Source of the DNA: an uncultured bacterium
GTDB lineage: Bacteria > Hydrothermota > Tepidihabitantia > Tepidihabitantales > Tepidihabitantaceae
Reading direction: 5' to 3'
NCBI GenBank assembly: GCA_964597845.1
Contig: CAZQZR010000003.1
Location: 3,427 to 67,426, forward strand
DNA: 64,000 nt
Below, in pieces: positions 4,276 to 62,714 of the stretch (its first letter is position 1; every line of letters starts with the position of its first letter). A program made the translations under genes and the position numbers. A model generated the notes under the pieces. That model worked only from the letters and a program-made list of their open reading frames with translations, was not told the origin of the DNA and searched no databases.

Positions 4276-4349
4276 GGGCGGCCCTGTCTGCGTGCGGCCC
4301 CGCGCAGGCAGGGCGGCTATCTTACTTGAACTTCTTCTGCAGAGTCTGG

Positions 4350-4426
4350 ACCCGGGCGAGCTCGACTTTGACGTCCTCGCCGCGATCCGCTTCGAGAACT
4401 TCAGTATCGACGAGCCCAAGCCGTAG
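4350..4426 (+). pseudogene. duplicated 3'-end fragment of the CDS seen at 1..40
   Basis: 25 codons (DPGELDFDVLAAIRFENFSIDEPKP*) with about 90% G/C at third positions. No credible start codon or upstream coding signal. Sequence identical to 1-40 except one synonymous change. Confidence 0.4.
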
Positions 4427-9431: not shown

Positions 9432-9510
9432 GAGAATAGTGAATAGTAAATAGAGAATTGTGAAACTCGAATCCGCCTTTCACTATTCACCATTCTCAAT
9501 TCACTATTCC
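9432..9510. repeat. long imperfect hairpin built from heptamer words (gaatagt family)
   Basis: gagaatagtgaatagtaaatagagaattgtgaaa / tttcactattcaccattctcaattcactattcc are inverted arms around a 12-nt loop, immediately after the speB stop. The word ttctcaattcactattc recurs at 48251-48275. Confidence 0.6.
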
Positions 9511-9730: not shown

Positions 9731-9808
9731 CCCAACCAGCGAACCAGTTCGCAGTTAGGAGTTAGGAGTCAGGAGACGGTCCGACTGCTACCTGCTACCT
9801 GCTAACTC

Positions 9809-11932
9809 CTAAGGACTGACCAGGGCAACGCGCTCGACGCGCACCCCGCGCGGGGAGTTCACCACGAGCAGGTAGAGCCCGCTCGCCTTGTTCTGTGGCC
9901 GCCAGACCGCCTGGTGCCGCGCCGCCTCGACCCGCAGTTCGGCAACCGGCCGGCCATCGATCGTTCGCACTCCCACACTGGTCGCATCGTACGGCAACCC
10001 ATCGATCACGACGCCGCTATGCACCCCGAGAATGCACGGGTTCGGATAGACCCGCAGATGGTTCGCGGTGGTCTCCGGCGCCACGGAGTAATTGTATACG
10101 GACAGGCCGCGTTGCGTCCCGATCAAGGCGAGCCCGAGGTCGTCGCTCAGCGCCATCGCCGAGTAGAACCCGACAAACCCCTGGAGGTTCGCGATGAGGC
10201 CGCTGTTCTGGGGCGTGAAGCTGGTCCAGTTCCGGGCAACCTGGTCGTAGATTGAGAGCCCGGCCTCGGTCAAGAGCCACACGCGGTCCGATGCGTCGAC
10301 GCGGACTCGGTAGACGTTGTTCGCGAGGATGCCGCTGTTGGCGGTGGTGAAGACCTGGAACGAAGAACCGTTCCACGTCGCCGCGCCCTGCGGGGTCGCA
10401 ACCCAGACGCGGTCCTGTCCGTCAACCGCCACCGACCTGACTTCAGCCGACGGCAACCCGCCGGAAAGCACGGCATAGGAATCGTCGGACCGGTCGTGCA
10501 GGGTCCCGCCGTAGTCAATCATCACCAGCCCGACGGTCAGGCCCAACCAGGCCCGGCCGCGCGAGTCGAACGCAAACTCGTAGAGCCCGCCCGGCGGCGG
10601 CGCCAGGCCCGCGACCTCGAACACGGTCTGCTGAAGAACGGAGTCCACCGCGACTACGGTCCCACCGCCGTTGAAAACCCACTTGGTGTCATACTGGTCG
10701 ATGCCAAATGCGTCAATGATGTTCCAACTGGACAGGTCGCCCCATTGCACCTTCTGCCACGAGCCATCCGAGGGGTCGTACGCGGCCAGCCCGCCGTTGC
10801 CGGAGAAGTGCGCGAGCCAGATCCGGTTCTTGGAATCAACCCGCACCTGGACTGGTACGGGTAGCACGCTCCACATCACCGAAACCTGCCCTACCGAATC
10901 CACCAATGATATGGCGGAACCGTAGTGGCACAGGTAGATGTCGCCGGTCGAGCGGATAGCGCAGTCGGAAACCGCTGCGGACCAGATGCAGTTGCTGTAA
11001 TACGAGCTCCATGACTGGCCCGAGAAAGCATAGCGCAAACCTGACCCGTAGAGTTCGTTGCCTCCACAACCGACCCAAAGTGCGTCGGCAAAGTGCAAAA
11101 CCCGCGTGTCCTCATTGAGAATCACCGAGAATCGGGATGAATCGGCTCCGTCGCCCTCGTACAGCCCGGCTTGCGTCGCCAGGTAGATTCTCGGCCCGGA
11201 CACGACCAGTTGGTACACCTCAGTCGGCTCGCCAAAGCCGACGACCTTCCTGAACCCCGTGCTCTCTCTTATCGCCAGCCCTCGCTCGGTAGCGAGCAAC
11301 AGGCTGTCGTGCCACAGCGCGACGGCCCGCACCGAGTCGCCGAACGGCTGACGATAAGGCGTCCAGGACGTGAATCCGCGGTCAACCGCCACAACACCGC
11401 GATTGGTGCCCACCCAGTATTCGCTCAAGGCCGCGACGCAGAGTATCTGGTCGCTCAGCAACTCCGGCACCCGGGCCATGGTGAACCGGACGATGCTGTC
11501 GTCATCGAAGTCGAGGAACGTGCCGCGTGTCTCAATCACGTATAAGCCCTGGTCCGAACCGCAGAGCAGCCGGTCCCCATCCCATATCATGGTCCTGATC
11601 CGCAGGGCAAGGTCGTTAGGCCGGTACTGCCGGACCAGGCCGCTGTCCGGCTCAATCACGGCCATGCCGCCGCCATCGGTCCCGACCCAGAGGTCGCCGG
11701 CCGCATCCCGGCCGATACACAGGCACCGGTTCGTCGGCAACCCATCCGAATTCACGAACGTCCGGCGCAGCAGGGGCTCGGGCAGGATGTCGAGCGCGAC
11801 GACGCCGCCGTTGGTCGCAAGATACATGACCGAATCGGTACCGACCATACCTCTGATGAAGTTCGTGTTGGTATAGGACTGCCAGGCACCGGTGCTGCCG
11901 GTCGCGAGGAGAAGGAGGAGTAGTCCTGTCAT
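9809..11932 (-). CDS. beta-propeller protein (two-component-regulator-propeller-like repeats) with T9SS-type sorting domain
   Basis: 707 aa with signal peptide. Repeated ...G.LWVGT.GG....D... blades. C-terminal ...ASGLYLLVVNSPRGVRVERVALVSP. Confidence 0.65.
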   Translation of the reverse strand: MTGLLLLLLATGSTGAWQSYTNTNFIRGMVGTDSVMYLATNGGVVALDILPEPLLRRTFVNSDGLPTNRCLCIGRDAAGDLWVGTDGGGMAVIEPDSGLVRQYRPNDLALRIRTMIWDGDRLLCGSDQGLYVIETRGTFLDFDDDSIVRFTMARVPELLSDQILCVAALSEYWVGTNRGVVAVDRGFTSWTPYRQPFGDSVRAVALWHDSLLLATERGLAIRESTGFRKVVGFGEPTEVYQLVVSGPRIYLATQAGLYEGDGADSSRFSVILNEDTRVLHFADALWVGCGGNELYGSGLRYAFSGQSWSSYYSNCIWSAAVSDCAIRSTGDIYLCHYGSAISLVDSVGQVSVMWSVLPVPVQVRVDSKNRIWLAHFSGNGGLAAYDPSDGSWQKVQWGDLSSWNIIDAFGIDQYDTKWVFNGGGTVVAVDSVLQQTVFEVAGLAPPPGGLYEFAFDSRGRAWLGLTVGLVMIDYGGTLHDRSDDSYAVLSGGLPSAEVRSVAVDGQDRVWVATPQGAATWNGSSFQVFTTANSGILANNVYRVRVDASDRVWLLTEAGLSIYDQVARNWTSFTPQNSGLIANLQGFVGFYSAMALSDDLGLALIGTQRGLSVYNYSVAPETTANHLRVYPNPCILGVHSGVVIDGLPYDATSVGVRTIDGRPVAELRVEAARHQAVWRPQNKASGLYLLVVNSPRGVRVERVALVSP

Positions 11933-16969: not shown

Positions 16970-18643
16970 TCAAGCGCCCTCGCCCTCGCTTCTCCTCGTT
17001 TTCCCGGCCAGCACGGTCGCCGCTGCGAGGTAGAGAAACGGCATCGCCGGCACTCGGAATCGACCGTCGGTGAACGGCAGGGCAGCTACCACGAAGTATA
17101 ACCCAATGACGAGTAGCATCAGCTTCTCTGCCCGCCACCGCCTGAATGCCAGTGAAACCAGCGCCAGTAGAAAGGCCCCGATTGCGGTCAGCAGTTCGAA
17201 CCCGGCCAGGAGCCATATCGCGAGCCTTACGCCAGTGGAACCATAGTCCCGGTTCAGCAGCACGCTCCCCTGGGTCCCCGGCACCTTGGCATGAAGCATC
17301 CTCAGCACGAGGTCGTCCGACTTGATACCGGCAATGACCTTTGGCACGCCACGCAGGCATATCCAGGCGTAGCGGAGCGGGTCGTGGAGGATGATACTTG
17401 TCGCCTTGCGCGTCATCAGGTCGGCGAGCTCCAACGGGTTGTCCGTGGCGAGTCTCGCGGTGAAGTCGTGCGCGAGTTCTATCCTCGCGCTGTCCTGCGA
17501 GACGTGCTGCTCACCGCCTAGCACCGAGGCCGCGTTGGCATAGAGCAGGTTGTACCCGCCGTTCGAGGTGAGGCTGAACCGGTGAAAGTGATAGTAGTTC
17601 CGCGCCGCCCAGATTCCGGGCAGCAGCGAGAACGCAACCAGCATCAAGACCAACCCGCGCCAGTTCCTCCTCGCAGCCAGCGCGATTCCGAACGGCACGA
17701 ACGCAAGCAGGGCAACCGGCCTCACGAGCACCGCGAACCCCAGCACCAGCCCGGCCGCAGCCACACTCAACGCCCGGCTCGGCGTCCCCGCTCTCCCTTT
17801 GCCATTTCCCCTTTCCCATTCGCGCCTCGGTATGCCCGTTCTCCCTTCGCCATTTCCCCTTTCCCCTTCGCGCTTGGCGTCCTTGGCGGTTTCCCTTCCG
17901 CTCCTCACTTCGCCATTTCCCCTTTCCCATTCCTTCTTGGCGTTCTTGGCGTCCTTGGCGGTTTCCCTTCCACTCCTCACTTTGCCATTTCCCCTTTCCC
18001 CTTCTCCCCTTGGCCATCCCCAGACCAGCGCCGCCGCTAATACTACCGTGAACGCAAACAGCACCTCGGACATGACCATGCCCGACGAGAAGATGCTCGG
18101 GATGTCAACCGCAAGCAGTGCTGCACCCAAGAGCCCGACCCGCGAGTTGAACAGCCGGAGTCCGACCAGACCGGTGAGGAACACTGTGAGCCCGGCCAGC
18201 AGCGCCTGCACAATGACAATCGCAGTCACGTTACCGTTAAGGAAAGCAAGCAGCAACGGGTAGCCCGGAGTCCGAAACGTATTCGGAATCCCCGTTCCCA
18301 CTTTGCCGTTTCCCCCTTCCCCTTTGCTCCTCAGATTGCCATTTCCCCTTGAGACTTCTCCCCTTGTGCTCAGCCCTTCGCCATTTCCCCTTTCCCCTTC
18401 GCTTCCGGGCTCCTCGCTCCAGCTATACGATTGCCGGTGCCTGATGCCCGCGCCGAGCAACAGATACTGCTCCGAATCACCCAGCTCTATCTCCCCTCGC
18501 TTCAAGTAGGTTGCTTCCGTCTCAGGCTTCACCGGGTCAGCCGCAACGTAGCTGTGCCCCTTGAACGACGCGGAAACCGCCAGCCTGATGACGACTGCCG
18601 CCACGGCGATGGCCAGTAGCGCTCGGAACTCGCTCTTAGACAC
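16970..18643 (-). CDS. membrane glycosyltransferase (GT39/ArnT-PMT-like) carrying low-complexity inserts
   Basis: 557 aa and polytopic. RTPGYPLLLAF... core typical of ArnT/PMT_2-type enzymes. Two inserts are rich in GERGNGK/ETAKDAK and are encoded by the intergenic word repeats. Confidence 0.7.
   Translation of the reverse strand: MSKSEFRALLAIAVAAVVIRLAVSASFKGHSYVAADPVKPETEATYLKRGEIELGDSEQYLLLGAGIRHRQSYSWSEEPGSEGERGNGEGLSTRGEVSRGNGNLRSKGEGGNGKVGTGIPNTFRTPGYPLLLAFLNGNVTAIVIVQALLAGLTVFLTGLVGLRLFNSRVGLLGAALLAVDIPSIFSSGMVMSEVLFAFTVVLAAALVWGWPRGEGERGNGKVRSGRETAKDAKNAKKEWERGNGEVRSGRETAKDAKREGERGNGEGRTGIPRREWERGNGKGRAGTPSRALSVAAAGLVLGFAVLVRPVALLAFVPFGIALAARRNWRGLVLMLVAFSLLPGIWAARNYYHFHRFSLTSNGGYNLLYANAASVLGGEQHVSQDSARIELAHDFTARLATDNPLELADLMTRKATSIILHDPLRYAWICLRGVPKVIAGIKSDDLVLRMLHAKVPGTQGSVLLNRDYGSTGVRLAIWLLAGFELLTAIGAFLLALVSLAFRRWRAEKLMLLVIGLYFVVAALPFTDGRFRVPAMPFLYLAAATVLAGKTRRSEGEGA
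17787..18012. repeat. word-repeat block (ccatttc/ccctttc and cttggcgtc families) translated inside the GT39 gene
   Basis: About 75-nt unit duplicated in tandem (cttcgccatttcccctttccc...cttggcgtccttggcggtttcccttcc.ctcctca). Encodes GERGNGKVRSGRETAKDAK... The same words occur intergenically at 12120, 33190, 37462 and 50681. Confidence 0.75.
18291..18402. repeat. second word-repeat block inside the GT39 gene
   Basis: ttgccgtttcccccttcccctttgc...ttgccatttcccctt...cgccatttcccctttcccc, encoding EGERGNGEGLSTRGEVSRGNGNLRSKGEGGNGK. Confidence 0.7.
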
Positions 18644-18966: not shown

Positions 18967-19302
18967 GGGGGAGGCTCTCCCCAAGCCTTTGGCAGGCTCT
19001 TTGGCAAAGCCTCTGCCAAGGCCTTGGGCAAGCCCTCCGGCAAAGCCTCTGCCAAGCTCTTTGGTCAGGCCTCTGGCAAGGTCTTTGCCCCGCTCTTCGG
19101 CAAGGTCTCTCGTAAGGCCTCTGCCGAGGTCTCTGGTAATGTCTTTCCTCAGCTCCTTGGCAGAGTCTCTGGCAAGGTCTCTCCCAAGCTCATTGGCAAG
19201 CTCTTCGACAAGGCCTCTGGCAAAGCCTCTCCCAAGGCCTTTGGCAAGTCCTTGGGCAATGGCTCTGCCAAGCTCTTTCCTCCGTTCTTTGGCAGTACCT
19301 TT
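18967..19302. repeat. 12-nt degenerate tandem array A (28 units, consensus GGCAAGGCCTCT)
   Basis: 28 consecutive 12-mers in perfect phase with no indel. Positions 3, 4, 9, 10 and 12 (..CA....CT.T) are conserved. Open in three reading frames. Confidence 0.85.
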
Positions 19303-19702
19303 GCCCGGTTCCGATACCCGCCCGGCCAGCCGGCCGTCGATCACCGGCGACATTCGATTTGACACCACCCTCATTCGGGGTAATCCTGACCGCCGATGCA
19401 CAGTGGATTCAGCCCAGCCTTGACAGAGGCTGGAAATATAGGAAGTGTGCCAAATCTGACCCGGGCTCCAGTTCACTTTCCAGCATGATTGCTCCTTTCA
19501 TTCGGTCTCAATAAGCAATCTGCACTTTGGCCCCGAAATAATGCACCTTCCTTCGTCCGGCGCGGGACATGAATGAATTGTCCTCAATTCGTATCGTGTC
19601 CCAAGCCGGATTACAGCGCTGTGTCTCGTTAAGTGCCGGAACCTCAGCAACCTACAATCCGCAATCGTCAATCTACAATGCGGAGGGGCCCCGACAGGGG
19701 GA

Positions 19703-19858
19703 GTGGTTCTGACCGTGACTCTAAGACCAAATCTAACCGAGACTCTGACCGAGACTCTATCGTAGGCTCTGTCCGGGACTCTGACCGAGACTCTGTCCTA
19801 GACTCTAAGATAGAATCTGTCCGAGACTCTGTCCTAGACTCTGAGATAGAATCTGTCA
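19703..19858. repeat. 12-nt degenerate tandem array B (13 units, consensus GAGACTCTGTCC)
   Basis: 13 consecutive 12-mers in perfect phase (gagactctgacc gagactctatcg taggctctgtcc ...). Units contain GAC-tct-GTC dyads. Confidence 0.8.
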
Positions 19859-20017
19859 TAACCTGTTTTCCTCCCGCCTCGCGACCTCCGAGATACGCAG
19901 CCGAGTACCCTCTATCGGGACCTTTGCCCAAACCGGCGAATGGCGCAATTGGGCAGCTTGACTCCGGCCGAAACCAGACCTATCCCAGTGCCTGTGGATG
20001 TCGGATTCAGCCCGGCC

Positions 20018-37579: not shown

Positions 37580-38842
37580 ATGCCAATGACGTTTGCCGAA
37601 AGAGTGCTCAGCCGCAAGGCAGGCAAGAAGGCTGTCCGGGCGGGTGAACTCGTCACCTGCAAGCCCGACCGGCTCCTGATGCACGACAATGCCGCGGCCA
37701 TCACCGACAAGGTGGCAAAGGACCTGGCCGAGTTCGGGATCGCGGACCCGGAACAGCCGGTCATCGTCCTCGACCACGTGATTCCGGCCTCAGACGAAAA
37801 GACCGCTACAAGCCACAAGAAGATCCGCGAGTTCGTCCAGAGATACGGCATCAAGCACTTCTTCGACATCGGCACCGGCATCTGCCACCAGGTGATGGTC
37901 GAAAAGGGACTGGTCCTGCCCGGCACGCTCGCAGTCGGTTCGGACTCGCACACCTGCTCCTACGGCGCGGTGAACACGTTTGCCACCGGCGTCGACCGGA
38001 CCGAGGCGGCGTCCCTGCTCCTCACCGGCGAGACATGGTTCAAGGTCCCCGAGACAATCCGCATTACCCTCAAGGGCCGGCTGCCGGAGATGGTGGCGGC
38101 CAAGGACCTCATCCTGACCATCATCGGCAAGATCGGCGCCGACGGCGCGGACTACTGCTCAGTCGAGTTCTGGGGTGACATCGGCAGCCTGACGATTGAC
38201 GACCGGTTCACCATCGCGAACATGGGCGTCGAGATGGGTGCGAAGAACGCTGTCTTCCCGGTGGACGAAATCACGAAGGGCTATCTGCAGGAAGTCGGCG
38301 TGAAGCGCATATCGTGGAACCCCGAGTGGGCGGATGATGGCGCGACCTATCGGCAGGAGCTGACGTGGAACATGGCCGAGGTCGTGCCGGCGATTGCCGT
38401 CCCGCACAAGGTTGACAAGTACAAGCCCGTCACCGAGATGGCCGGCCTGGAGATTCAGCAGTGCCTGATTGGCACGTGCACGAACGGACGGGCGAGCGAC
38501 CTCGCGGTCGCGGCGAGAATACTCTGCGGCAAGAAGGTCTCTCAGAATACGCGGCTGCTGATACTCCCCGCCTCCCGGGCTGAACTCGAGAAGGCACTCG
38601 ACGCCGAGGACATCCAGACCCTTGTTTCTGCCGGCGCGGTCCTGCTGCCCCCAGGCTGCGGGCCGTGCCTCGGCGCGCACCAGGGCTGCCTTGCGCCCGG
38701 CGAGAAGTGCCTTTCGACTGCAAACCGCAACTTCAAAGGCCGGATGGGCTGCAAGGACGCCGAAATCTACCTTGCCTCGCCCGCAACCGTGGCCGCGACC
38801 GCACTCACCGGCAAGATTACTGACCCGCGTGAATTCGCATGA
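37580..38842 (+). CDS. leuC: 3-isopropylmalate dehydratase / homoaconitase large subunit family
   Basis: MTFAERVLSRKAG...ELVTCKPDRLLMHDN, GSDSHTC, CGPCLG, ANRNFKGR (aconitase-family Fe-S ligand region). Substrate assignment is uncertain. Confidence 0.8.
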   Translation: MPMTFAERVLSRKAGKKAVRAGELVTCKPDRLLMHDNAAAITDKVAKDLAEFGIADPEQPVIVLDHVIPASDEKTATSHKKIREFVQRYGIKHFFDIGTGICHQVMVEKGLVLPGTLAVGSDSHTCSYGAVNTFATGVDRTEAASLLLTGETWFKVPETIRITLKGRLPEMVAAKDLILTIIGKIGADGADYCSVEFWGDIGSLTIDDRFTIANMGVEMGAKNAVFPVDEITKGYLQEVGVKRISWNPEWADDGATYRQELTWNMAEVVPAIAVPHKVDKYKPVTEMAGLEIQQCLIGTCTNGRASDLAVAARILCGKKVSQNTRLLILPASRAELEKALDAEDIQTLVSAGAVLLPPGCGPCLGAHQGCLAPGEKCLSTANRNFKGRMGCKDAEIYLASPATVAATALTGKITDPREFA

Positions 38843-38876
38843 CTTTGGACTTGAGACTTTGGACTTAGGACTTAAC

Positions 38877-40792: not shown

Positions 40793-42400
40793 ATGCAACT
40801 CGTCAAGAACGCGCTCGGCCGCATGGTCCCGACCGAGGTCAACGGCAAGCCGGCAATCCCATTCCCCGGAGTAGGTAAGCACCGGCCCACCGGCCGCAAG
40901 GCCTGCCCGCAAATCCCGACCTGCCTTGATTACCCGGAAGACGGCAACAAAGTCGTGGCCGACTTGAGGACCGCGATCGAGAAGGCCGGTATCCGCAACG
41001 GCACGACTCTCTCGACCCACCACCACTTCCGCGACGGCGATACACTCCCACTCCAACTCTTCGACCTCTGCGCCGAAATGGGTCTTAAGGACTTGGTCTG
41101 GTATCCTTCGGCCGCCTTCCCGTGCCACGCGCCGATAACCAAACATCTCGACTCCGGCGTCATCCACCACATCGAAGGCAGCTTAAACGGCCCCTTGGGA
41201 GACTACTGCACCCAGGGCAAGATGCGCGGGCTGGGCGTGCTCCGCTCGCACGGCGGCCGTGCCCAGGCGATTCAGGATGGTGAAATCCACATCGACATCG
41301 CGGTTGTCGCCGCGCCGACTGCCGACCAGTTCGGCAACGCCAACGGGGTCCACGGCGACACGGCCTGCGGCGTGCTCGGCTACGCCCCCGCCGACGTAAC
41401 CTATGCCGACCGGACTATCGTAGTCACCGACAACCTGGTCCCCTTCCCGGCAATCCCCATCCAGCTCTCGGGCACGTACGTCGACATGGTCGTACAGCAG
41501 GACCATATCGGCGACCCAAAGAAAATCGTCTCGGGCACGACCCAGATTACGCGCAGCCCGGACCGGCTCTACATCGCCGAACTGACCGCGAAGTTCATCC
41601 GTGACGCCGGCATCATGCGCGACGGGTTCAGCTTCCAGGCGGGCGCCGGCGGCGTCTCGCTCGCCTTCGCCATCTACCTTGCCGACATGATGAAGCAGAA
41701 CGGGGTCAAAGCAGGCTGGCTCCACGGCGGCTCGACCCGGTACCTCGTGAAGATGCTCGAGGACGGCCTTGCGCCCGCGCTGGTTGACGGGCAGGCATTC
41801 GACGAGGACGCAATCCGCTCCATCGCGGTCAACCGCGGCCACATCTCCACCAGCCCCCTGGTCAGCTACAACTTCCACGCCAAAGGCAACTACATCAACC
41901 TGCTCGACGTGGCCGTGCTCGGCGCGACCGAAGTGGACACGAACTTCAACGCCAACGTCGTCACCCATTCGGACGGCCGCCTGCGCCACGGCATCGGCGG
42001 CTGGCAGAACTGCATGTACGCCCGCTGCACGATACTCTCGGTACCCGCCATGCGCGACCGGATGCCGGTCATCGTTGACGAAGTAACCACGCTCTGCGCC
42101 CCGGGCGAACTTGTAGACGTCATCGTCACCGAGCTCGGAATCGCCATCAACCCCAGACGACAGGACCTGCTCGATGCGGTCAAAGGCAAGGGCCTCCCGG
42201 TCCGGCCCATCGAAGACATCAAGGCCGAGGTCGAGCGCATCTGCGGCAAACCGGCCCGTCAGGCGCGCGAAAACGGGGACTGTCCCGCGCCGAGTTCGAC
42301 GCAGGCGCTCCGGGGGACTGTCCCCAGTTTTCGCCGAGTCGTAGCCGTCGTCAAATGGGTTGACGGCACGGTACTCGACTCGGTGTACCAAGTCAGTTAG
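40793..42400 (+). CDS. citF: citrate lyase alpha subunit (citrate CoA-transferase)
   Basis: 535 aa with the ATG directly after the CitE stop. CitF-like length and N-terminus (NALGRMVPTEVNGK...PF.G). C-terminal region interrupted by a palindromic-element variant. Confidence 0.8.
   Translation: MQLVKNALGRMVPTEVNGKPAIPFPGVGKHRPTGRKACPQIPTCLDYPEDGNKVVADLRTAIEKAGIRNGTTLSTHHHFRDGDTLPLQLFDLCAEMGLKDLVWYPSAAFPCHAPITKHLDSGVIHHIEGSLNGPLGDYCTQGKMRGLGVLRSHGGRAQAIQDGEIHIDIAVVAAPTADQFGNANGVHGDTACGVLGYAPADVTYADRTIVVTDNLVPFPAIPIQLSGTYVDMVVQQDHIGDPKKIVSGTTQITRSPDRLYIAELTAKFIRDAGIMRDGFSFQAGAGGVSLAFAIYLADMMKQNGVKAGWLHGGSTRYLVKMLEDGLAPALVDGQAFDEDAIRSIAVNRGHISTSPLVSYNFHAKGNYINLLDVAVLGATEVDTNFNANVVTHSDGRLRHGIGGWQNCMYARCTILSVPAMRDRMPVIVDEVTTLCAPGELVDVIVTELGIAINPRRQDLLDAVKGKGLPVRPIEDIKAEVERICGKPARQARENGDCPAPSSTQALRGTVPSFRRVVAVVKWVDGTVLDSVYQVS
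42275..42325 (+). repeat. palindromic element variant with expanded spacer, in-frame in citF
   Basis: GGGGACTGTCCC-N26-GGGGACTGTCCCC, flanked by the inverted GCGAAAAC / GTTTTCGC. Translated as GDCPAPSSTQALRGTVP. Confidence 0.8.
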
Positions 42401-42712
42401 GAGTTAGCAGTTAGCAGTTAGGAGTTGGCAGACCGCTGACTCCGTCCAGCTCAGGCACAAGCGCAAGCCCTAGGCTGGCTCAAGCGCAAGCTCAAGCACA
42501 AGCTGGCCCGCCGTTTTGGCCTTTGGCTTTTGGCTTCTCCGCCTCCACACTTCTGCGCTCTAGCCTCTAGCTTCTTCACTCTGACTTCGTCTCTTCGATG
42601 CCTTCTTGGTGGACTCCGGTTCGGACTTGGCGATCTTGGCGTCCTTGGCGGTTCAATCTCGGCTTCCGGGTCGGTTTCTGGACTCCTGCCTCCTGCCCGG
42701 TAGAATCCCAGG

Positions 42713-43480
42713 GTGAACAAAGCCTGGCGGCTTCCTATCCGTCTCGTCACGACGATAGTGCTAGTCGGCATCGGTATCCTCGTCATGAACCTGCCCGCCC
42801 TGCTCCGGCGGCAGCGGCTGCCGGCTCTGGGCCTGACCGCCGCGACCACGTTCACAGACTCGGCCAATGTACCTGCGGGAACTCCCCTGCCAGACTCGGC
42901 CGCAGTGATGGTCGCGCTCGGACGCGTGTTTGACCCGGAAATCGGCATCTCCATAGTTGATCTGGGACTCGTGAACTCCCTGCGCATCGACTCTGCCGGC
43001 ACGGTCAAGGCAACCATCATACTCACCACTCCCGAGTGCCCGTATGTGCAGCACCTTGGGGTCCAGGCAACAAAGGAGGTCATCGCGGTCCGGGGGGTAC
43101 GCCGGGTCAGAGTCCGCCTGGACCCGACGCTTCCCTGGGACCCGAGCCGTCTGACACCGGAGGCAAGGGAGCTCTACCGCAAGCGGTTTGGTGGGGGACT
43201 GCCACGGCTCCCCGGGGACTGGCACGGCTTTCCTCCGGGGAAAACCGTGCCTGTACCCAATCCCAGGCAAAACCGTGGCTGTACCACCCCAGAACCGAGA
43301 CAGAAGTTCACCACCAAGACACAAAGACACGAAGGCGGGCGCGGGCGAAGTCAGAGGTCAGATACCAGAAGTCAGAATGCAGAAGTCCGGAGTCCGGGTC
43401 TTGGCGAACTTGGCGTCCTTGGCGGTTCAATATCGGATTCGGGCACCAGCAGCAATGATGATTCTGAAACTGGTCGCTAA
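42713..43480 (+). CDS. DUF59 / Fe-S assembly (MIP18-like) domain protein whose ORF runs on through repeat DNA
   Basis: Core VFDPEIGISIVDLGLV...TTPECPYVQHLG...V.V.L...PWDPSRLTPEA. The last about 90 codons are encoded by hairpin/word repeats. The N-terminus may start later, at MVALG (42908). Confidence 0.6.
   Translation: MNKAWRLPIRLVTTIVLVGIGILVMNLPALLRRQRLPALGLTAATTFTDSANVPAGTPLPDSAAVMVALGRVFDPEIGISIVDLGLVNSLRIDSAGTVKATIILTTPECPYVQHLGVQATKEVIAVRGVRRVRVRLDPTLPWDPSRLTPEARELYRKRFGGGLPRLPGDWHGFPPGKTVPVPNPRQNRGCTTPEPRQKFTTKTQRHEGGRGRSQRSDTRSQNAEVRSPGLGELGVLGGSISDSGTSSNDDSETGR
43190..43450. repeat. composite repeat block (nested inverted repeats plus heptamer arrays)
   Basis: GCCACGG..GGCACGG..CCGTGCC..CCGTGGC nested dyads. 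accaccaagacacaaag paired with cttggcgtccttggcggt. The array gaagtca gaggtca gatacca gaagtca gaatgca gaagtcc ggagtcc lies at 43347-43395. Confidence 0.7.
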
Positions 43481-48071: not shown

Positions 48072-48311
48072 GACCTTCTCCCGCTCAGGCGACCCGGGTT
48101 GAGTGTCGTAGACTGCGCGGTTGGTATCTTCCTCTGTCCCGCCATTCGCCTACTTCCTTCAGAAGTAGGGCCAGTTTCCAGCACCCCGGCGCACGCTTCC
48201 CGTTCGGCCCAGTTTCCTATATGTCCCCTCGAAATCGAGCCCCGAAATCCTGTAACTTCTCTATTCTCAATTCACTATTCACTCTTGCCGAAACTCCCCT
48301 ACCCCATCCCC

Positions 48312-48647
48312 TAGACTGTTTGGTGAATTGTCCGGAGAATCATCTAGAGAGCAATCCGGCAGACTATCCTCCAGACTATCCGCCAGACAATCTGGAGAAT
48401 CATCTAGACGACTATCCAGCAGACTATCTGGAAGACAATCTCCCGGAGAATGTGGAGGACAATCTGGACCGCAGTCTGGAGAACCATTCAGCCGACTATT
48501 CCGCAGATTGCCCGGAGAATCATCTGGAGAGCAATCTGGAGGATTATCCGGAGAGCAATCGGGCAGACAATCTACCCGATTATTCGGTAGATTGTCTGGT
48601 GAATTGCCTGGCGGATTATCTGGAGAACTATCCGGGGAATTCTCGTC
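48312..48647. repeat. 12-nt degenerate tandem array C (28 units, consensus NRGAYWATCYGG)
   Basis: 28 consecutive 12-mers in perfect phase with no indel (agaatcatctag agagcaatccgg cagactatcctc ...). Positions 3-4 GA, 7-8 AT and 11-12 GG are conserved. Open in three reading frames. Begins about 20 nt after the HerA terminator. Confidence 0.85.
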
Positions 48648-48666
48648 CAAAGGCCTAAACAGACAG

Positions 48667-48692
48667 CCGGGGCGCGGAATTCCGCGTCCCGG
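48667..48692 (-). terminator. palindromic hairpin after the HerA-like gene
   Basis: CCGGGGCGCGGAATTCCGCGTCCCGG, followed on the minus strand by CTGTCTGTTTAGG, 24 nt after the stop. Confidence 0.5.
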
Positions 48693-48715
48693 CATGAATC
48701 GGTAAACGGCCCGGA

Positions 48716-50563: not shown

Positions 50564-50698
50564 ACCACCAAGACACGAAGAGGAAGGGATGAAGCCGGAA
50601 AGGCTGAAGCCGGAAAAACCTGAGTTCGGGTTCGTCCTTCATCCCTCATCCTTCATCCTTTCCGCGACATGCTTGGCGGTCTTGGCGTCCTTGGCGGT
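50564..50698. repeat. long nested hairpin made of word repeats (A-B...B'-A')
   Basis: accaccaagacacgaag / aggaagggatgaag ... cttcatccctcatccttcatcc / cttggcggtcttggcgtccttggcggt. The outer and inner arms are each imperfect reverse complements. Confidence 0.7.
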
Positions 50699-54916: not shown

Positions 54917-55012
54917 ACTAGTTAGCAGTTAGCAGTGAAGAGTTAGTGAGGAAACCAACTCCTGACTCCTAACCCTTGACTCTTAACTCCTAACTCACTG
55001 TCCTACTGCTGC
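54917..55012. repeat. word-repeat inverted pair (tagcagt / taggagt family)
   Basis: ctagttagcagttagcagtgaagagttagtgagg ... ctcctgactcctaacccttgactcttaactcctaactcactgtcctactgctg. The same word family occurs at 9745-9815 and 42395-42430. Confidence 0.6.
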
Positions 55013-57968: not shown

Positions 57969-60122
57969 ATGAAGCAACTGCTCCTTGAAATCGGTACTGA
58001 AGAAATCCCGGCCTCGTTCCTTAAGCCGGCGGCGCTCGACCTTGAGCGCCGGGTTCGGGCCGCGATTTCGGAAAATGACATACCGGCTGGCGTGTCCGAG
58101 CTCTTCTCGACCCCGCGCCGGCTCGCGCTCCGCCTAAGCGACGTCGCCGACGGCAGGCCTGCCCAGGTCATTGAACTCCAGGGCCCGCCCCGCAAGGCCG
58201 CGTTCGACGCCCAGGACAACCCCACCAGGACCGCGGTCGGATTCAGCGCGGCCCACGGCAAGACCCCGGCGGACCTGTACTTCAAACAGACTCCGCGCGG
58301 CGAATACGTCTTCCTGAAGAAACAGACCGACCCGTTGCCGACCACCAAAGTGCTGCAGGAAAGGCTGCCCGGAATCATCCCCACCCTGCCATTCCCCAAG
58401 AACATGCGCTGGGACGCAAGCGGCCTCAGGTTCGCCCGACCTATCCGCTGGCTCGTCTGCCTGTTTGGCCCGGATGCGGTCGAGTTCACACTCGGCGAAC
58501 TCAAGTCCGGCGCCGACTCCCGCGGGCTCCGCAACTCGAAGCCTTCTCAGTTTCGCGTCCCGAGCCCGGCCGAGTACGAAACCGCGCTAAAGGCGCACGG
58601 CGTCATCGCGTCGCACGACGCCCGGCGCAAGACCATCGCGGCGGACTTGCTTCGCCTGGCCGGCACGGTCAGCGGCCAGCCGGTCGAGGACGACGAACTA
58701 TTGGACGAGACCACGGACATCACCGAATCCCCGGAACTGCTCCTCTGCTCATTCAACCCGGACTACCTCTCCCTGCCCGGCGAAGTACTGGTAACCGCGC
58801 TCAAGAAGCACCAGCGCTGCTTCTCCGTTCAGGGGGACTGTCCCCGCACGGGGACTGTCCCCAAAGCCGCGCCTGCCCTCCTCCCCCGTTTTGTCGCCGT
58901 CACCAATACGCCCGGCTGCGACCACGCAGTGGTGACCGGCTGGTACGAGAGAGCCGCCGAGTCGCGACTGCGCGACGCCCGTTTCTTCGTCGAGTCCGAC
59001 CTGAAACGCGGCCTCGAAGCGCTGGTCGATGAGGAAAAGCAAGTCACGTGGATCGAAGGCATGGGCACCTACTTCGACAAAACCCAGCGCCTGCGCGAAC
59101 TCTGCCGCCACCTGACAGCGCAGACCCCGAACACCGACGCGATCGCGCTGGACCGGGCCGCCCTGCTCTGCAAGGCCGACCTGCTCACAGAGATGGTACG
59201 CGAGAAGGAGTTTACCTCGCTGCAGGGCCGCATCGGTGGCATCTACGCGCGTACCATGGGTGAACCGCCGTCCGTTGCCGACGCGATTGCCGAGCACTAC
59301 CTGCCCCGTTTCACCGGCGACAAGCTGCCGGCGACCCGTGACGGCGCGCTGCTCAGCATTGCCGACAAGCTCGACAACATCGTCGCCACCTTCCTGAGTG
59401 GCGAAATTCCCACCGGCTCCGAAGACCCGTTCGCCCTGCGCCGCCAGGCAACCGGGCTCCTCACCATCGTGCTCAAACAGAACCTGCCGATTGATATCGG
59501 TGAACTGGTCGCGGCCGCGCTCCGGCTCCTCCCCGCAGCGAAGAACGAATACGCGTCCCAGATTCCCGGCCTGTTCCGCGAACGGCTCAATGCCCTTCTC
59601 GCCGAACAGGGAATCCGGTACGACATCGCGGCCGCGGTCATGGAGACCAGTTGGCAGCAGCCGGCCCAGGCTCTGGTCCGGGCCAATGCGCTGGCCGCGT
59701 TCCGCGACGACCCCGAGTTCCTAAGGCTCGTAGTCGGTCAGAAGCGCGTGGCCAACATCCTGAAGGGACAAACCGCCTGGGGACTGTCCCCGCATGGGGA
59801 CTGTCAGGGGACTGTCCCCGAACGGGGACTGTCCCCAAAACTCAAAGAGCGACTTCTCACCGAACCCACCGAGCAGCAACTCTGGACCGAAGCGCAGAAG
59901 GTCGAGCCCGACCTTAACCAAAGCCTTGCCGCGCACGACTACCGGCGCGCCTTCAAGTTACTTCTCGGCCTCCGTCCGACGATAGACAAGTTCTTTGAGG
60001 ACATACTGGTGATGGCCAAGGATGAGAAGGTGCGAGAGAACCGCCTTAGCCTGCTCGGGTACGTCCGCTCCCTATTCGGCAGAGTCGCGGACCTGTCGAA
60101 GATAGTCATTGAAGGAGAATAG
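57969..60122 (+). CDS. glyS: glycine-tRNA ligase beta subunit
   Basis: MKQLLLEIGTEEIPASF..., FSTPRRLA, typical GlyS N-terminus and length apart from two palindromic-element inserts. No glyQ is adjacent. Confidence 0.9.
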   Translation: MKQLLLEIGTEEIPASFLKPAALDLERRVRAAISENDIPAGVSELFSTPRRLALRLSDVADGRPAQVIELQGPPRKAAFDAQDNPTRTAVGFSAAHGKTPADLYFKQTPRGEYVFLKKQTDPLPTTKVLQERLPGIIPTLPFPKNMRWDASGLRFARPIRWLVCLFGPDAVEFTLGELKSGADSRGLRNSKPSQFRVPSPAEYETALKAHGVIASHDARRKTIAADLLRLAGTVSGQPVEDDELLDETTDITESPELLLCSFNPDYLSLPGEVLVTALKKHQRCFSVQGDCPRTGTVPKAAPALLPRFVAVTNTPGCDHAVVTGWYERAAESRLRDARFFVESDLKRGLEALVDEEKQVTWIEGMGTYFDKTQRLRELCRHLTAQTPNTDAIALDRAALLCKADLLTEMVREKEFTSLQGRIGGIYARTMGEPPSVADAIAEHYLPRFTGDKLPATRDGALLSIADKLDNIVATFLSGEIPTGSEDPFALRRQATGLLTIVLKQNLPIDIGELVAAALRLLPAAKNEYASQIPGLFRERLNALLAEQGIRYDIAAAVMETSWQQPAQALVRANALAAFRDDPEFLRLVVGQKRVANILKGQTAWGLSPHGDCQGTVPERGLSPKLKERLLTEPTEQQLWTEAQKVEPDLNQSLAAHDYRRAFKLLLGLRPTIDKFFEDILVMAKDEKVRENRLSLLGYVRSLFGRVADLSKIVIEGE
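58833..58862 (+). repeat. double-palindrome element, in-frame in glyS
   Basis: GGGGACTGTCCCC-GCAC-GGGGACTGTCCCC, translated as GDCPRTGTVP(K). Same orientation and frame relative to the host gene as the three sorting-domain copies. Confidence 0.9.
59779..59836 (+). repeat. tandem/partial copies of the palindromic element, in-frame in glyS
   Basis: GGGGACTGTCCCC-gcat-GGGGACTGTC-a-GGGGACTGTCCCC-gaac-GGGGACTGTCCCC, translated as GLSPHGDCQGTVPERGLSP. Confidence 0.9.
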
Positions 60123-61268: not shown

Positions 61269-62714
61269 CTACTTCTTCACTCCCGCTGCCTCCTGCCGTA
61301 CCGTGTTCATCATCGAGAGCACGCAGGCGATACCCTCCTCATTCAGCCCGACTTCAACGAACAGCTCTTCCATCCGCTTCCGTCCCAGCTTGCCCTCACA
61401 CTTGGTCAGCTCGTTCAGCATCGACCTGGGTCCGTCGGCCGCCCCGATCTTCAGGGACAAACACAGCGCCGCGGCCAACTCCGGCACGGCCTGATCATGC
61501 TTCCCCATGTCCATCAAAATTGTCCCAACGCTGGCAAGGCTGCACGCCACGCCCTGCTGATACCCGATCTCACGGTGAATCGCCAGCGCCTCCTGCAGGT
61601 ACTTCAGAGCCCTGTCGGGCTCGGCTTTGTCGCGGTAGACAAGCCCGATGTTGCCGAGGTCGCTCGCGACGACCCGCTGATACCCGATTTCACGGTCGAT
61701 CGCCAGTCCTTCCTCGAAGCACTCCAGCGCCTTGTCGAGTTCGCCCTTGACGCGGAAGATACTCCCGATGTTGCCGAGCCGGTCCGCCGCGCCCTGCTTG
61801 TGACCGACTTCGCGGTCTATGGCCAGCGCCTCTTTGTAGTACTTGAGCGCCTTGTCGAGTTCGCCCTTGTCGCGGTAGATAAGCCCGATGTTGCCGAGGT
61901 CGCTCGCCACGCCCTGCTGATAATCAATTTCGCGGTCTATCGTGAGCGCTTCCTCATAGCACTTCAGCGCCTTGTCGGATTCACTTTTGTTGCGGTAGAT
62001 AGTCCCGATGTCGCCGAGGTCGCTCGCCACGGCTCGCCGATATCCGATCTTGCGGTGAATCGCCAGCGCTTCCTCGTAGCACTTCAGCGCCTTGTCGGGC
62101 TCGCCCATGTCGTGGTAGATGAGCGCGATTTCGCCGATGTCTGATGCCTCGCCCCGATGATGCCCGATTTCACGGTGAATCGCCAGCGCCGCCTCCATGT
62201 ACTTCAGCGCCTGCTTGGGTCCGCCCTTGTCCCGATGGATGTTCGCCATGTTGACGAGGTTTGTCGCCGCCTCCTCCCGAGACGCGACTTCACGGTCTAT
62301 CGCCAGCGCTTCCTCGTAGCATTTCAGCGCCCTGTCAGGTTCGCCCTTCGTGCCGCAGATGAACCCGATGTCACCGAGGGCCGCGGCCTTCCCCAGCTTG
62401 TCCCCGAACTGCTCTGCCAGCCGGACCGATTCCTCGTAGTTCCTGAGCGCGTCGTCCAGGCGGCCCGGGCGGTAGCAGCACAACCCGATCAGGTTAAACA
62501 GCGCGACGAGCTGCTTCCCCTCGGCCAGCTTTGTCGCTTCCCGGAAGTGGCCAATTGCTTTGTCCCACTTGTTCGCACGCATGGCGGCATGACCAAGGTC
62601 GTACAGTTTTCTGATCGCGGGCTCAGACTCCGGCAGGCCGCCGAGGTATCCCATCAAGCCTCCATCTGGGAGCGCAGACTTGCGGCCCCATTCCACAGAA
62701 CGCCGGAACCGCAA
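61269..62714 (-). CDS. tetratricopeptide-repeat protein
   Basis: 481 aa. About nine 40-aa units of ALK.YEEALAI.REIG...G.A..LGNIG.IYRDKGE.DK. Confidence 0.8.
   Translation of the reverse strand: MRFRRSVEWGRKSALPDGGLMGYLGGLPESEPAIRKLYDLGHAAMRANKWDKAIGHFREATKLAEGKQLVALFNLIGLCCYRPGRLDDALRNYEESVRLAEQFGDKLGKAAALGDIGFICGTKGEPDRALKCYEEALAIDREVASREEAATNLVNMANIHRDKGGPKQALKYMEAALAIHREIGHHRGEASDIGEIALIYHDMGEPDKALKCYEEALAIHRKIGYRRAVASDLGDIGTIYRNKSESDKALKCYEEALTIDREIDYQQGVASDLGNIGLIYRDKGELDKALKYYKEALAIDREVGHKQGAADRLGNIGSIFRVKGELDKALECFEEGLAIDREIGYQRVVASDLGNIGLVYRDKAEPDRALKYLQEALAIHREIGYQQGVACSLASVGTILMDMGKHDQAVPELAAALCLSLKIGAADGPRSMLNELTKCEGKLGRKRMEELFVEVGLNEEGIACVLSMMNTVRQEAAGVKK

Follow-up and report, generated by a model that had tools for sequence, protein, structure and literature searches.

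A phased array of 12-nt repeats in candidate division WOR-3, a non-coding element of a class coupled to a gene for an adnavirus capsid-like protein

Here we analyse array C, a tandem array of 12-nt units at positions 48312-48647 of a 64-kb stretch of bacterial DNA (the window; contig CAZQZR010000003.1), and compare it with the closest described systems. In the nucleocapsids of Sulfolobus islandicus rod-shaped virus 2 (SIRV2) and Acidianus filamentous virus 1 (AFV1), one dimer of the major capsid protein (MCP) wraps 12 bp of A-form DNA (PMC5517147), and in Pyrobaculum filamentous virus 2 (PFV2) 564 bp are wound in 47 local turns, or 12.0 bp per local turn (PMC7189273). The 2025 ICTV profile lists only archaeal hosts for the realm Adnaviria and calls the MCP fold unique (PMC12282232). 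The protein encoded beside arrays of the present class is homologous to these capsid proteins and is predicted to share their fold, and the array period equals their 12-bp dimer step. Adnaviria are, however, viruses of archaea, whereas here the gene is chromosomal, in bacteria, beside housekeeping genes, and binding is putative. To our knowledge, adnaviral genomes have no 12-bp sequence periodicity, and viral coating is sequence-independent.

Tandem 12-bp iterons are also found in the type III partition centromeres of plasmids and phages, where tubC is bound by TubR dimers as a filament. Here too, tandem 12-bp direct repeats form a putative track for a dimeric filament, in a cis site beside the gene of the binder. 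That system has a winged-helix binder (TubR), ~7 copies of a single repeat sequence in tubC and a TubZ GTPase, and it resides on plasmids or phages; a comparison of gene contents showed none of these features here. Ribbon-helix-helix proteins likewise occupy contiguous repeats, as omega of pSM19035 does on 7-bp heptads and ParR on the 10-11-bp iterons of parC. The likeness lies in short contiguous repeats upstream of promoters and in putative cooperative binding, with autoregulation, a centromere function or both as its outcome, and the 7-nt arrays that go with the 12-nt ones here resemble heptads; fold, period and copy number differ (4-10 vs 24-28 here), and no partner ATPase accompanies the present module. 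In nucleosome-positioning sequences, a dinucleotide periodicity of ~10 bp fits the local turn of the DNA being wrapped, and the rotational setting of a histone-like wrapper would be fixed in the same way here. The parallel is no more than an analogy, since the DNA on eukaryotic and archaeal histones is B-form and its period is near 10.2 bp, unlike the 12-bp arrays. Finally, prokaryotic minisatellites and the short tandemly repeated repetitive (STRR) heptamers of cyanobacteria are short degenerate tandem repeats, intergenic, with locus-specific units and confined to one lineage. All of this holds for the present arrays, but minisatellites have no fixed companion gene or known register conservation, whereas in the present class the period, the number of units (24-28) and the placement with respect to the gene stay constant.

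The array class fits neither adnaviral nucleocapsids nor iteron tracks, as there is no virus, plasmid, TubZ/TubR or known sequence-periodic MCP target. It is so far undescribed, and we know of no precedent in bacteria for the pairing of a virus-capsid-like protein with phased chromosomal DNA. Our proposal, made with moderate confidence, is that array C, a non-coding cis-acting DNA element with ~27 dyad-like 12-bp registers, belongs to a class specific to WOR-3 and is an orphan track, in constant phase, to which the capsid-like protein would bind.

Array C and its class

Array C is made of head-to-tail 12-nt units in one phase, with zero indels across 48312-48647:

48312..48635, no strand assigned: core of array C, 27 in-phase 12-nt units with plus-strand consensus NRGAYWATCYGG, near CAGA-NNN-TCTG; non-coding; defined by position weight matrix (PWM) and lag-12 self-match
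48636..48647, no strand assigned: degenerate 28th unit GGAATTCTCGTC, PWM score -4.1

At lag 12 the array matches itself at 0.59, where 5000 shuffles give 0.25 +/- 0.024 (z = 14; top shuffle 0.35), and the match is 0.51 at lag 24 and 0.09 at lag 6; within the window, 324-nt stretches at this lag-12 level are limited to array C and array A. In a leave-one-out PWM scan 27 consecutive units were positive, from +2.3 to +15.6 (background 99th percentile +2.0). Since unit 28 falls below zero, array C is described as 27 solid units plus one degenerate. Tandem Repeats Finder (TRF) recovers it merely as fragments because unit identity is only ~60-70%. Four contigs with identical HerA carry the same array, with 0-2 single-nucleotide differences and unchanged length. 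A CRISPR array was ruled out; the units abut without spacers and the neighbours have no cas domains.

An earlier note on this DNA, written from the sequence alone, had recorded here a third 12-nt array, of 28 units. Its coordinates, its phase and its place as a true third member of the set are borne out by the PWM and lag-12 results, and 27 of the 28 units stand. The equality in count and length with array A, which the note had pointed out, is real on the side of A (28 units and 336 nt by the same PWM) but includes the degenerate last unit of C. The dinucleotides GA, AT and GG had been called fixed at their unit positions, which overstates what are strong preferences (16-26 of 28): G3 16, A4 24, A7 21, T8 26, C9 23, G11 19 and G12 23. 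As for the palindromic character of the units, they do approximate CAGA-NNN-TCTG, and a column-permutation test of their dyad symmetry gives p = 0.076.

Array C is non-coding. The decisive test is a comparison with a paralogue described below: 51 differences over 324 nt, with no gaps, are spread 15/20/16 over the codon positions, and this flat distribution rejects coding. Three frames are open across the array, with GC contents at third codon positions (GC3) of 0.31, 0.32 and 0.53 against 0.74-0.85 in nine host genes. The open reading frame (ORF) of 145 aa at 48221-48658 (+) is without a Shine-Dalgarno sequence (SD), its ATG lies inside a -10-like TATATGT, and no Pfam match was found for its product. 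In seven orthologous arrays of another unit type (TITA), each candidate frame meets stops in 2-3 sequences, and the ratio of nonsynonymous to synonymous differences (pN/pS, Nei-Gojobori) is 0.62-0.95 in all six frames, while HerA has pN 0.036 and pS 0.32. The KL-type array of L008 is an open frame without a start codon. An SD and ATG on the minus strand of arrays A and B (GGAGGAAA-N6-8-start) were considered and set aside, as the ORFs stop mid-array and array C has no equivalent; the B-type array of L005 also has a mid-array stop in its sole SD-led frame. A 'leucine every fourth residue' pattern was rejected as a post-hoc choice of frame.

Two further arrays in the window are orphans of the same class:

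18973..19308, no strand assigned: array A, 28 in-phase 12-nt units (GCCTCTGGCAAG), 336 nt
19708..19863, no strand assigned: array B, 13 in-phase units (TCTGACCGAGAC), with an orthologue in L005

Across 334 kb of WOR-3 DNA, the recurrent periods are lag 12 (14 segments, with its harmonic 24) and lag 7 (17 segments, with harmonics), and lags 9, 15 and 18 appear in 1, 2 and 1 segments; a multiple-of-three rule fails to account for this pattern. The class covers 2.4% of 738 kb of related DNA, in which 12 and 7 are again the sole recurrent periods. Unit counts of unrelated unit types fall at 24-28, and by the PWM method they are 28 in array A, in the A-like array downstream of HerA in L046, in L094 and in L104, and 27 in array C, in the TITA type and in C_L042. 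This clustering at 27-28 units (~324-336 bp) resembles a preferred or maximal length, and the coincidence of 28 with 28 seen by the earlier note fits it. Higher-order blocks of 24, 36 and 60 nt are present inside arrays.

The seven TITA orthologues (L033/L044/L045/L077/L080/L085/L088) show how tightly register is held. The array is 312 nt long in six of seven and 324 nt in the other, the sole indel being one whole unit, at an array p-distance of 0.24 and a HerA pS of 0.32. Substitutions per unit position run from 5-6 (AC, positions 1-2) up to 24. A control intergenic region upstream of HerA in relatives has many indels of every length. The earlier note had made its claim depend on conservation in relatives, and for the class this is found, register being kept at that HerA pS; the unit number is also kept in the paralogue of array C itself (27 units, no indel at 16% divergence).

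The whole 747-nt region from the HerA stop to the capsid-like start is nearly indel-free in these seven. The array flanks measure 195 and 240 nt in six of the seven, with one +1/-1 pair and one 9-nt deletion, at a substitution level of 25-35% and without any period-3 signal. An inverted repeat of 17 nt, GCATCTGGGTCTTCGTC / GACGATGACCCAGACGC (15/17 pairs), brackets the TITA array and its terminal palindrome (L085 746-762 and 1068-1084, and orthologues); its changes are one-sided only, and none was found around other array types. The B-type arrays of the window (19708-19863) and L005 (12189-12434) have a common 45-nt flank, CGGGAGRAAAACAGGYTATGACAGATTCTAT, and are set apart by a single position of the unit, changed in almost every copy (TCTCGG vs TCTCTG), a CGG/CTG change that indicates concerted evolution. 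Orthology of array C with the arrays of L042 and L075 was dropped, since the ends alone align. Enrichment of GANTC methylation sites and a CsrA-type GGA sponge were dropped as well, neither being common to the array types. A search of the literature on 12-bp or dodecamer repeats in prokaryotes and on tandem repeats in WOR-3 found nothing relevant.

The capsid-like protein and its coupling to the arrays

In most HerA relatives, a conserved gene for a protein of 123-125 aa (MSDVTRRIERWQKKY...) follows the array on the same strand. The product matches PF12193 (Sulfolobus virus coat protein) at E 2.9e-8 and 34.3 bits, against a curated cutoff of 25.2, as do 20 of 26 family members in all. Searched against the PDB, the family profile finds as best matches 6wq0, 3j9x (SIRV2) and 5w7g/3fbz (AFV1), at E 1e-4 to 1e-2. 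An AlphaFold2 model (predicted local distance difference test score, pLDDT, 91.5) has five helices and displays the long N-terminal helix and four-helix bundle of the fold. The top eight Foldseek matches to this model are all adnaviral MCPs (3j9x, probability 1.00, template modelling (TM) score 0.68; 3fbz, root-mean-square deviation 2.7 A; 3f2e, TMt 0.80). The N-terminal arms are especially similar, SQRYAKWQAKF in SIRV2 and TRRIERWQKKY in the bacterial family. Profile matches and the predicted structure together identify the partner protein as a homologue of the MCP of adnaviruses (SIRV2/AFV1/PFV2).

A search of the protein database at E <= 1e-3 gives 1641 family members, every one annotated as 'hypothetical', and the named sources are WOR-3. 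IMG/VR gave no match to it, and a literature search found no paper that links WOR-3 with Adnaviria. The genes next to it are rnpA-rpmH-yidC-mnmE, scpB and plsX, followed by toxin-antitoxin (TA) and restriction genes. A resident adnavirus or provirus, which would be expected to have a linear genome with terminal inverted repeats and further virion or replication genes close to the MCP, was considered and rejected; the neighbours are housekeeping, TA and restriction-modification (RM) genes, and no other virus genes were seen.

The coupling of gene and array was counted over full-length capsid-like genes for which 400 nt or more of the DNA upstream could be read, from ~8 distinct genomic contexts in the 738 kb. 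An array lies within 400 nt upstream, on the same strand, in 19 of 20 cases, and at ~420-600 nt in the twentieth. Family members fetched from contexts beside rnpA, DUF4412, DUF502, DUF192 and C25 peptidase genes each have 460-990 nt without called genes upstream; where the DNA could be read, that stretch contains an array of 12-nt units, the lag-12 match reaching 0.89 at most. The usual order is one or more arrays, a G/C-run or GGGNACNGTNCCC palindrome, ~50 nt, a TTGACA-17-TAnnnT promoter, an SD and the ATG. Three subfamilies defined by the N-terminal arm pair with unit types: RIERWQKKYSP with GGTGACCATCAC, RWKAKYN with GGCRAGTCACTC and RIEAWKAKLTP with CTGAGACTGAMC. Furthermore, eight of nine arrays directly upstream of the gene exceed column-permuted controls in dyad symmetry (p < 0.05). 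Two array types also occur in tandem before the same gene, the KL type (AAAGCTCNNTNN) and then the AGTCAC type, at L075 1040-1600 and L097/L098 4220-4770; as these are two unrelated genomic contexts, arrays and gene behave as one module. Array C itself has no capsid-like homologue within ~400 nt downstream on the same strand.

Palindromes GGGGACNGTCCCC were seen in tandem, at 17-28-nt spacing, at 59773-59836 of the window and at L085 1215-1255 and in its orthologues. Before the capsid-like gene, the same motif is found ~40 nt upstream of the SD; it also makes up the final two units of the TITA arrays and looks like an operator.

The earlier note had thought of assays with candidate DNA-binding proteins, and such a protein is indeed the most sensible target of a search; it had also asked whether arrays co-occur with HerA-like genes. 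The real companion is the 123-aa adnavirus capsid homologue, which it missed.

The locus of array C

Synteny with all more distant relatives holds upstream of HerA, whose product in the window groups with candidate division WOR-3, and stops exactly at the HerA stop codon. Downstream of HerA, relatives have four or five unrelated 12-nt array types or none; one with 98% HerA identity has a gene instead of the array, no arrays were found beside HerA at 60-75% identity, and arrays are confined to part of the clade with >80% identity. From the synteny break, the turnover of array types and the absence in distant relatives it follows that HerA is a neighbour of the array, not its partner. Arrays of the same class also lie beside rnpA-rpmH, DUF502, DUF192 and other genes, without HerA, and the link to HerA suggested by the earlier note thus fails when co-occurrence is checked in relatives.

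The origin of array C is indicated by a contig from the same sample (L105), which reaches 4.6 kb further left than the window; it was reached through the window ORF at 5362-7176, a look-up of the ORF at 157-1620 having matched nothing. At L105 3915-4420, ~300 nt past the left edge of the window, it carries a collinear paralogue of window 48150-48635 with the same hairpin, TATATGT/CCCCTCGRAAT leader, heptamers and C-runs, and with 27 units. Divergence is 15.7% in the array and 10% in the leader, without a gap, and the alignment breaks down after ~48630. Directly after the L105 array come the last 68 codons of the capsid-like gene (L105 4368-4676; profile positions 56-123, E 1.5e-31). Module and truncated gene span L105 3960-4679, with array and gene co-stranded and no promoter between them. 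Array C and its 160-nt leader are thus a duplicate of that module, in which the gene was lost or was never present; on the right, the copy stops at the probable HerA terminator. The features around array C are:

48150..48168, no strand assigned: small hairpin CTACTTC-CTTCA-GAAGTAG, left limit of the paralogue alignment (begun at 48150), paired with L105 3915-3933
48218..48250, plus strand: TATATGT (-10-like), then CCCCTCGAAAT and CCCCGAAAT; kept in L004 and L105
48257..48287, plus strand: about four tandem heptamers, TTCTCTA TTCTCAA TTCACTA TTCACTC, within the leader of the module (TRF 48257-48283, period 7); kept in L105
48288..48311, no strand assigned: two in-phase C-run units, CCGAAACTCCCC and TACCCCATCCCC, capping array C; kept in the paralogue
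48666..48693, no strand assigned: GC-rich palindromic hairpin in the gap between the array and the HerA stop, with 16-nt arms, 94% complementary; no counterpart in L105
48716..50362, minus strand: HerA/DUF87 ATPase gene (PF01935, 9e-35), a neighbour only
4325..4426, plus strand: 3' remnant of a capsid-like gene, its last 33 codons (...DVLAAIRFENFSIDEPKP*), E 0.008 among 1052 ORF fragments

The remnant at 4325-4426 comes after two minus-strand genes and repeats the C-terminus found at L105 4600-4679 (E 0.0006 with profile A4). Elsewhere too, the last 25-33 codons of the gene are repeated past accessory blocks of TA modules, C25 peptidase and large secreted proteins, as in L098 at ~6917-6990 and ~9750-9830. 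Given these repeated 3' ends, in the window with L105 and twice in L098, the 3' end of the capsid-like gene looks like an integration site for accessory islands.

On the left, the C-run CTCCCCTACCCCATCCCC at 48294-48311 has counterparts GGGGGAGTGAC and GACCGTCCCCGGGACGGTC in other arrays, and G/C runs cap one end in every array of the class. The left-flank motif noticed earlier is present as TATATGTCCCCTCGAAATCGAGCCCCGAAATCC at 48218-48250. Its component CCCCGAAAT has seven copies in the window, all on the plus strand (5054, 19531, 20046, 22778, 27987, 34371 and 48240), against 0.47 expected. A tie between this motif and the arrays, which the earlier note had raised, does not hold: it is generally promoter-proximal to plus-strand genes (5054, 20046, 22778), and CCCCGAAAT is likely a promoter-proximal element. 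The whole TATATGT/CCCCTCGAAAT/CCCCGAAAT stretch is a promoter-proximal motif common to ordinary plus-strand genes, with a predicted promoter function. Four copies of CCCCGAAAT lie 0-2 nt past a TAATGT/TATAT box ahead of plus-strand genes, and it often appears as CCCCGRAAT direct repeats spaced 13-14 nt. In L004, which has an identical HerA and a near-identical array, identity falls to ~75-80% left of ~48300 and the heptamer units are replaced, a break at the array edge that is either a recombination breakpoint or a chimeric assembly. On the right, the hairpin at 48666-48693 is probably the HerA terminator, outside the duplicated module, and it begins 19 nt past 48647, in agreement with the ~20 nt given earlier.

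Other repeats are frequent in the window. Heptamers stand in tandem, 3-6 at a time and with a unit particular to the locus (TTCACTA, GAATAGT, CAGTTAG, GACTTTG and others), in nearly every intergenic region, for example at 9434-9509, 9753-9812, 38841-38873, 42394-42431, 43347-43387, 48257-48283, 50631-50660 and 54957-54996, and one 7-nt unit was gained or lost between L097 and L098. Triplets of the 9-mer CTTGGCGNN, always on the plus strand (17934-17960, 42626-42650, 43400-43424, 50672-50698), usually stand right behind a heptamer block, the two making a recurring composite element. A membrane-protein ORF of 557 aa at 16970-18643 (-) contains TTTCCCC heptamer and CTTGGCG 9-mer blocks, especially at 17795-18011 and 18300-18400, which translate as GNGKWE/ERGNGE repeats; intergenic-type repeats appear to lie inside an open frame here, or the ORF is in truth several genes. 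At 61545-62379, seven copies of a 120-nt repeat (73% match) in a minus-strand ORF, unrelated to array C, presumably encode a 40-residue protein repeat.

Readings of the arrays and what they would mean

If array C is an orphan binding track, its complete counterparts may work as follows. Dimers of the bacterial capsid-like protein would load cooperatively on the array, one per 12-bp unit, and the 12-bp sequence period would hold all dimers in one register, with the same face and the same dyad towards the DNA. The G/C-run cap at one end could aid nucleation, G/C runs being A-philic sequence. In complete modules, the end of the filament would lie ~50 nt from the sigma70-like promoter of the gene, which might let it act back on expression or extend over the DNA next to it. 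The array, its lack of coding, the homology of the protein, its association with arrays and the paralogy are shown here; that the protein binds, with a single dimer on each unit and the DNA in A-form, and that regulation is affected, is what we infer.

A number of points weigh against this reading. As far as we know, viral MCPs coat DNA without sequence preference, and homology therefore does not imply a need for specific 12-bp units. Unit sequences are wholly different between array types, and dyad symmetry is lacking in some arrays (KL, p = 0.45-0.83; C_L042, p = 0.78), with p = 0.076 in array C. Orphan arrays are common (A, B, C, L042, L046, L008 and L040). The pairing of subfamilies with unit types amounts to three groups that are not phylogenetically independent. 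The association of array and gene could arise equally well if the arrays served some other factor as regulatory DNA upstream of the gene, or formed an RNA leader, and a -10-like TATATGT does lie upstream of array C on the plus strand. Also, neither the 64-kb window nor the 4.6 kb on its left side yielded an intact capsid-like gene; with only a truncated copy and a remnant there, the partner may be absent from the genome.

A broader form of the binding-track reading, which we regard as possible but doubtful, is a chromosomal DNA-wrapping system of WOR-3, in which the adnavirus capsid homologue would nucleate A-form filaments on dedicated 12-bp-phased loading tracks. It would make this protein the first relative, in a cell, of a fold regarded as exclusive to archaeal filamentous viruses. 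Such filaments might silence or protect adjacent DNA, or package the TA/RM islands inserted at the gene's 3' end. As to descent, the Adnaviria capsid would stem from this cellular system, or the system would itself be a bacterial adnavirus-like element that became domesticated.

Alternatively, the arrays could be relic minisatellites that arose by slippage or unequal exchange beside G/C-run hairpins and are neutral, their proximity to the gene being co-inheritance in a duplicating or mobile module. The 24/36/60-nt blocks and the concerted CGG/CTG change between array B and L005 are what such a process would leave, and the fast turnover downstream of HerA (4-5 array types, loss at 98% HerA identity), the many orphans and an array p-distance (0.24) near the HerA pS (0.32) point the same way. 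However, only periods 12 and 7 occur, and unit conservation is position-specific. Register and unit number are kept at pS 0.32 and in a paralogue 16% diverged, with no sub-unit indel, whereas the control region is indel-rich; counts of unrelated unit types cluster at 24-28, and position and strand relative to the gene are constant in ~8 contexts. We consider this explanation unlikely.

A non-coding RNA is a still less probable account. A plus-strand transcript of ~440 nt from TATATGT/CCCCGAAAT would carry repeats that form long imperfect hairpins or titrate an RNA-binding protein, possibly the capsid-like protein. Array C does fold much better than shuffles on both strands (z = -6.8 and -7.4), with a -10-like box and a conserved leader upstream and a hairpin downstream; in the paralogue the leader is better conserved than the array (10% vs 15.7% divergence), and array and truncated gene are co-stranded without an intervening promoter. 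The folding signal is not general, though. Over 14 arrays, z is ~0 for TITA_L085, C_L042 and L046_1, so self-complementarity is not class-wide. Rfam 15 gave 0 matches at gathering score in the window, and RNAalifold on seven orthologous regions gave a covariation term that is positive, the unfavourable sign, without finding any doubly compensated helix. No conserved RNA structure across arrays is seen by these three approaches. In addition, AGTC-type modules have a good TTGACA-17-TAnnnT promoter between array and gene, and array C has a poor -35 and no plus-strand U-tract after the hairpin.

It is likewise improbable, in our estimate, that the arrays are bound by some other DNA-binding protein, in iteron-, centromere- or operator-like fashion as in TubR-tubC or the omega heptads, with the capsid-like gene as a regulated target. 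In its favour, dyad-like units follow one another in tandem and in phase, the promoter of the gene comes right after the array, and heptamer arrays and GGGGACNGTCCCC palindromes in the same regions show that further factors have sites there. Still, no candidate regulator gene accompanies the module in the contexts examined, where the capsid-like gene is the sole constant neighbour, and this reading would leave unexplained why the period coincides with the 12-bp step known from the homologous proteins of viruses.

Finally, a small tetrapeptide-repeat protein, encoded by the 145-aa ORF at 48221-48658 (+) or by the xPDx frame (-), is highly improbable: it could draw on the three open frames, the collinearity of the ORF between paralogues, the calls of one gene caller (112 aa in one sample, and 160 aa on the paralogue), and a weak third-position excess in TITA-type arrays (47/43/74), but it fails on codon-structured divergence (flat 15/20/16; pN/pS ~0.66), on host codon usage (low GC3) and on translation start (no SD, ATG in the -10-like box), has no Pfam match, and is contradicted by related arrays that are open in other registers or lack a start and by stops in orthologues.

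Even if binding by the capsid-like protein should fail, the strict coupling of array and gene and the conservation of register would remain as new and unexplained properties of these genomes. If the binding-track reading is true, it would account for a lineage-wide, unannotated class of intergenic arrays, each pair of which would offer a cognate DNA and protein for biochemistry and cryo-electron microscopy. It would also be the first instance of a period in DNA sequence, 12 bp, that fits the step of an A-form-wrapping protein; nucleosome positioning, which involves another wrapper and another form of DNA, is the nearest parallel. The adnavirus capsid fold would then gain a bacterial cellular relative, and the origin of the capsid of this realm would be open to direct test.

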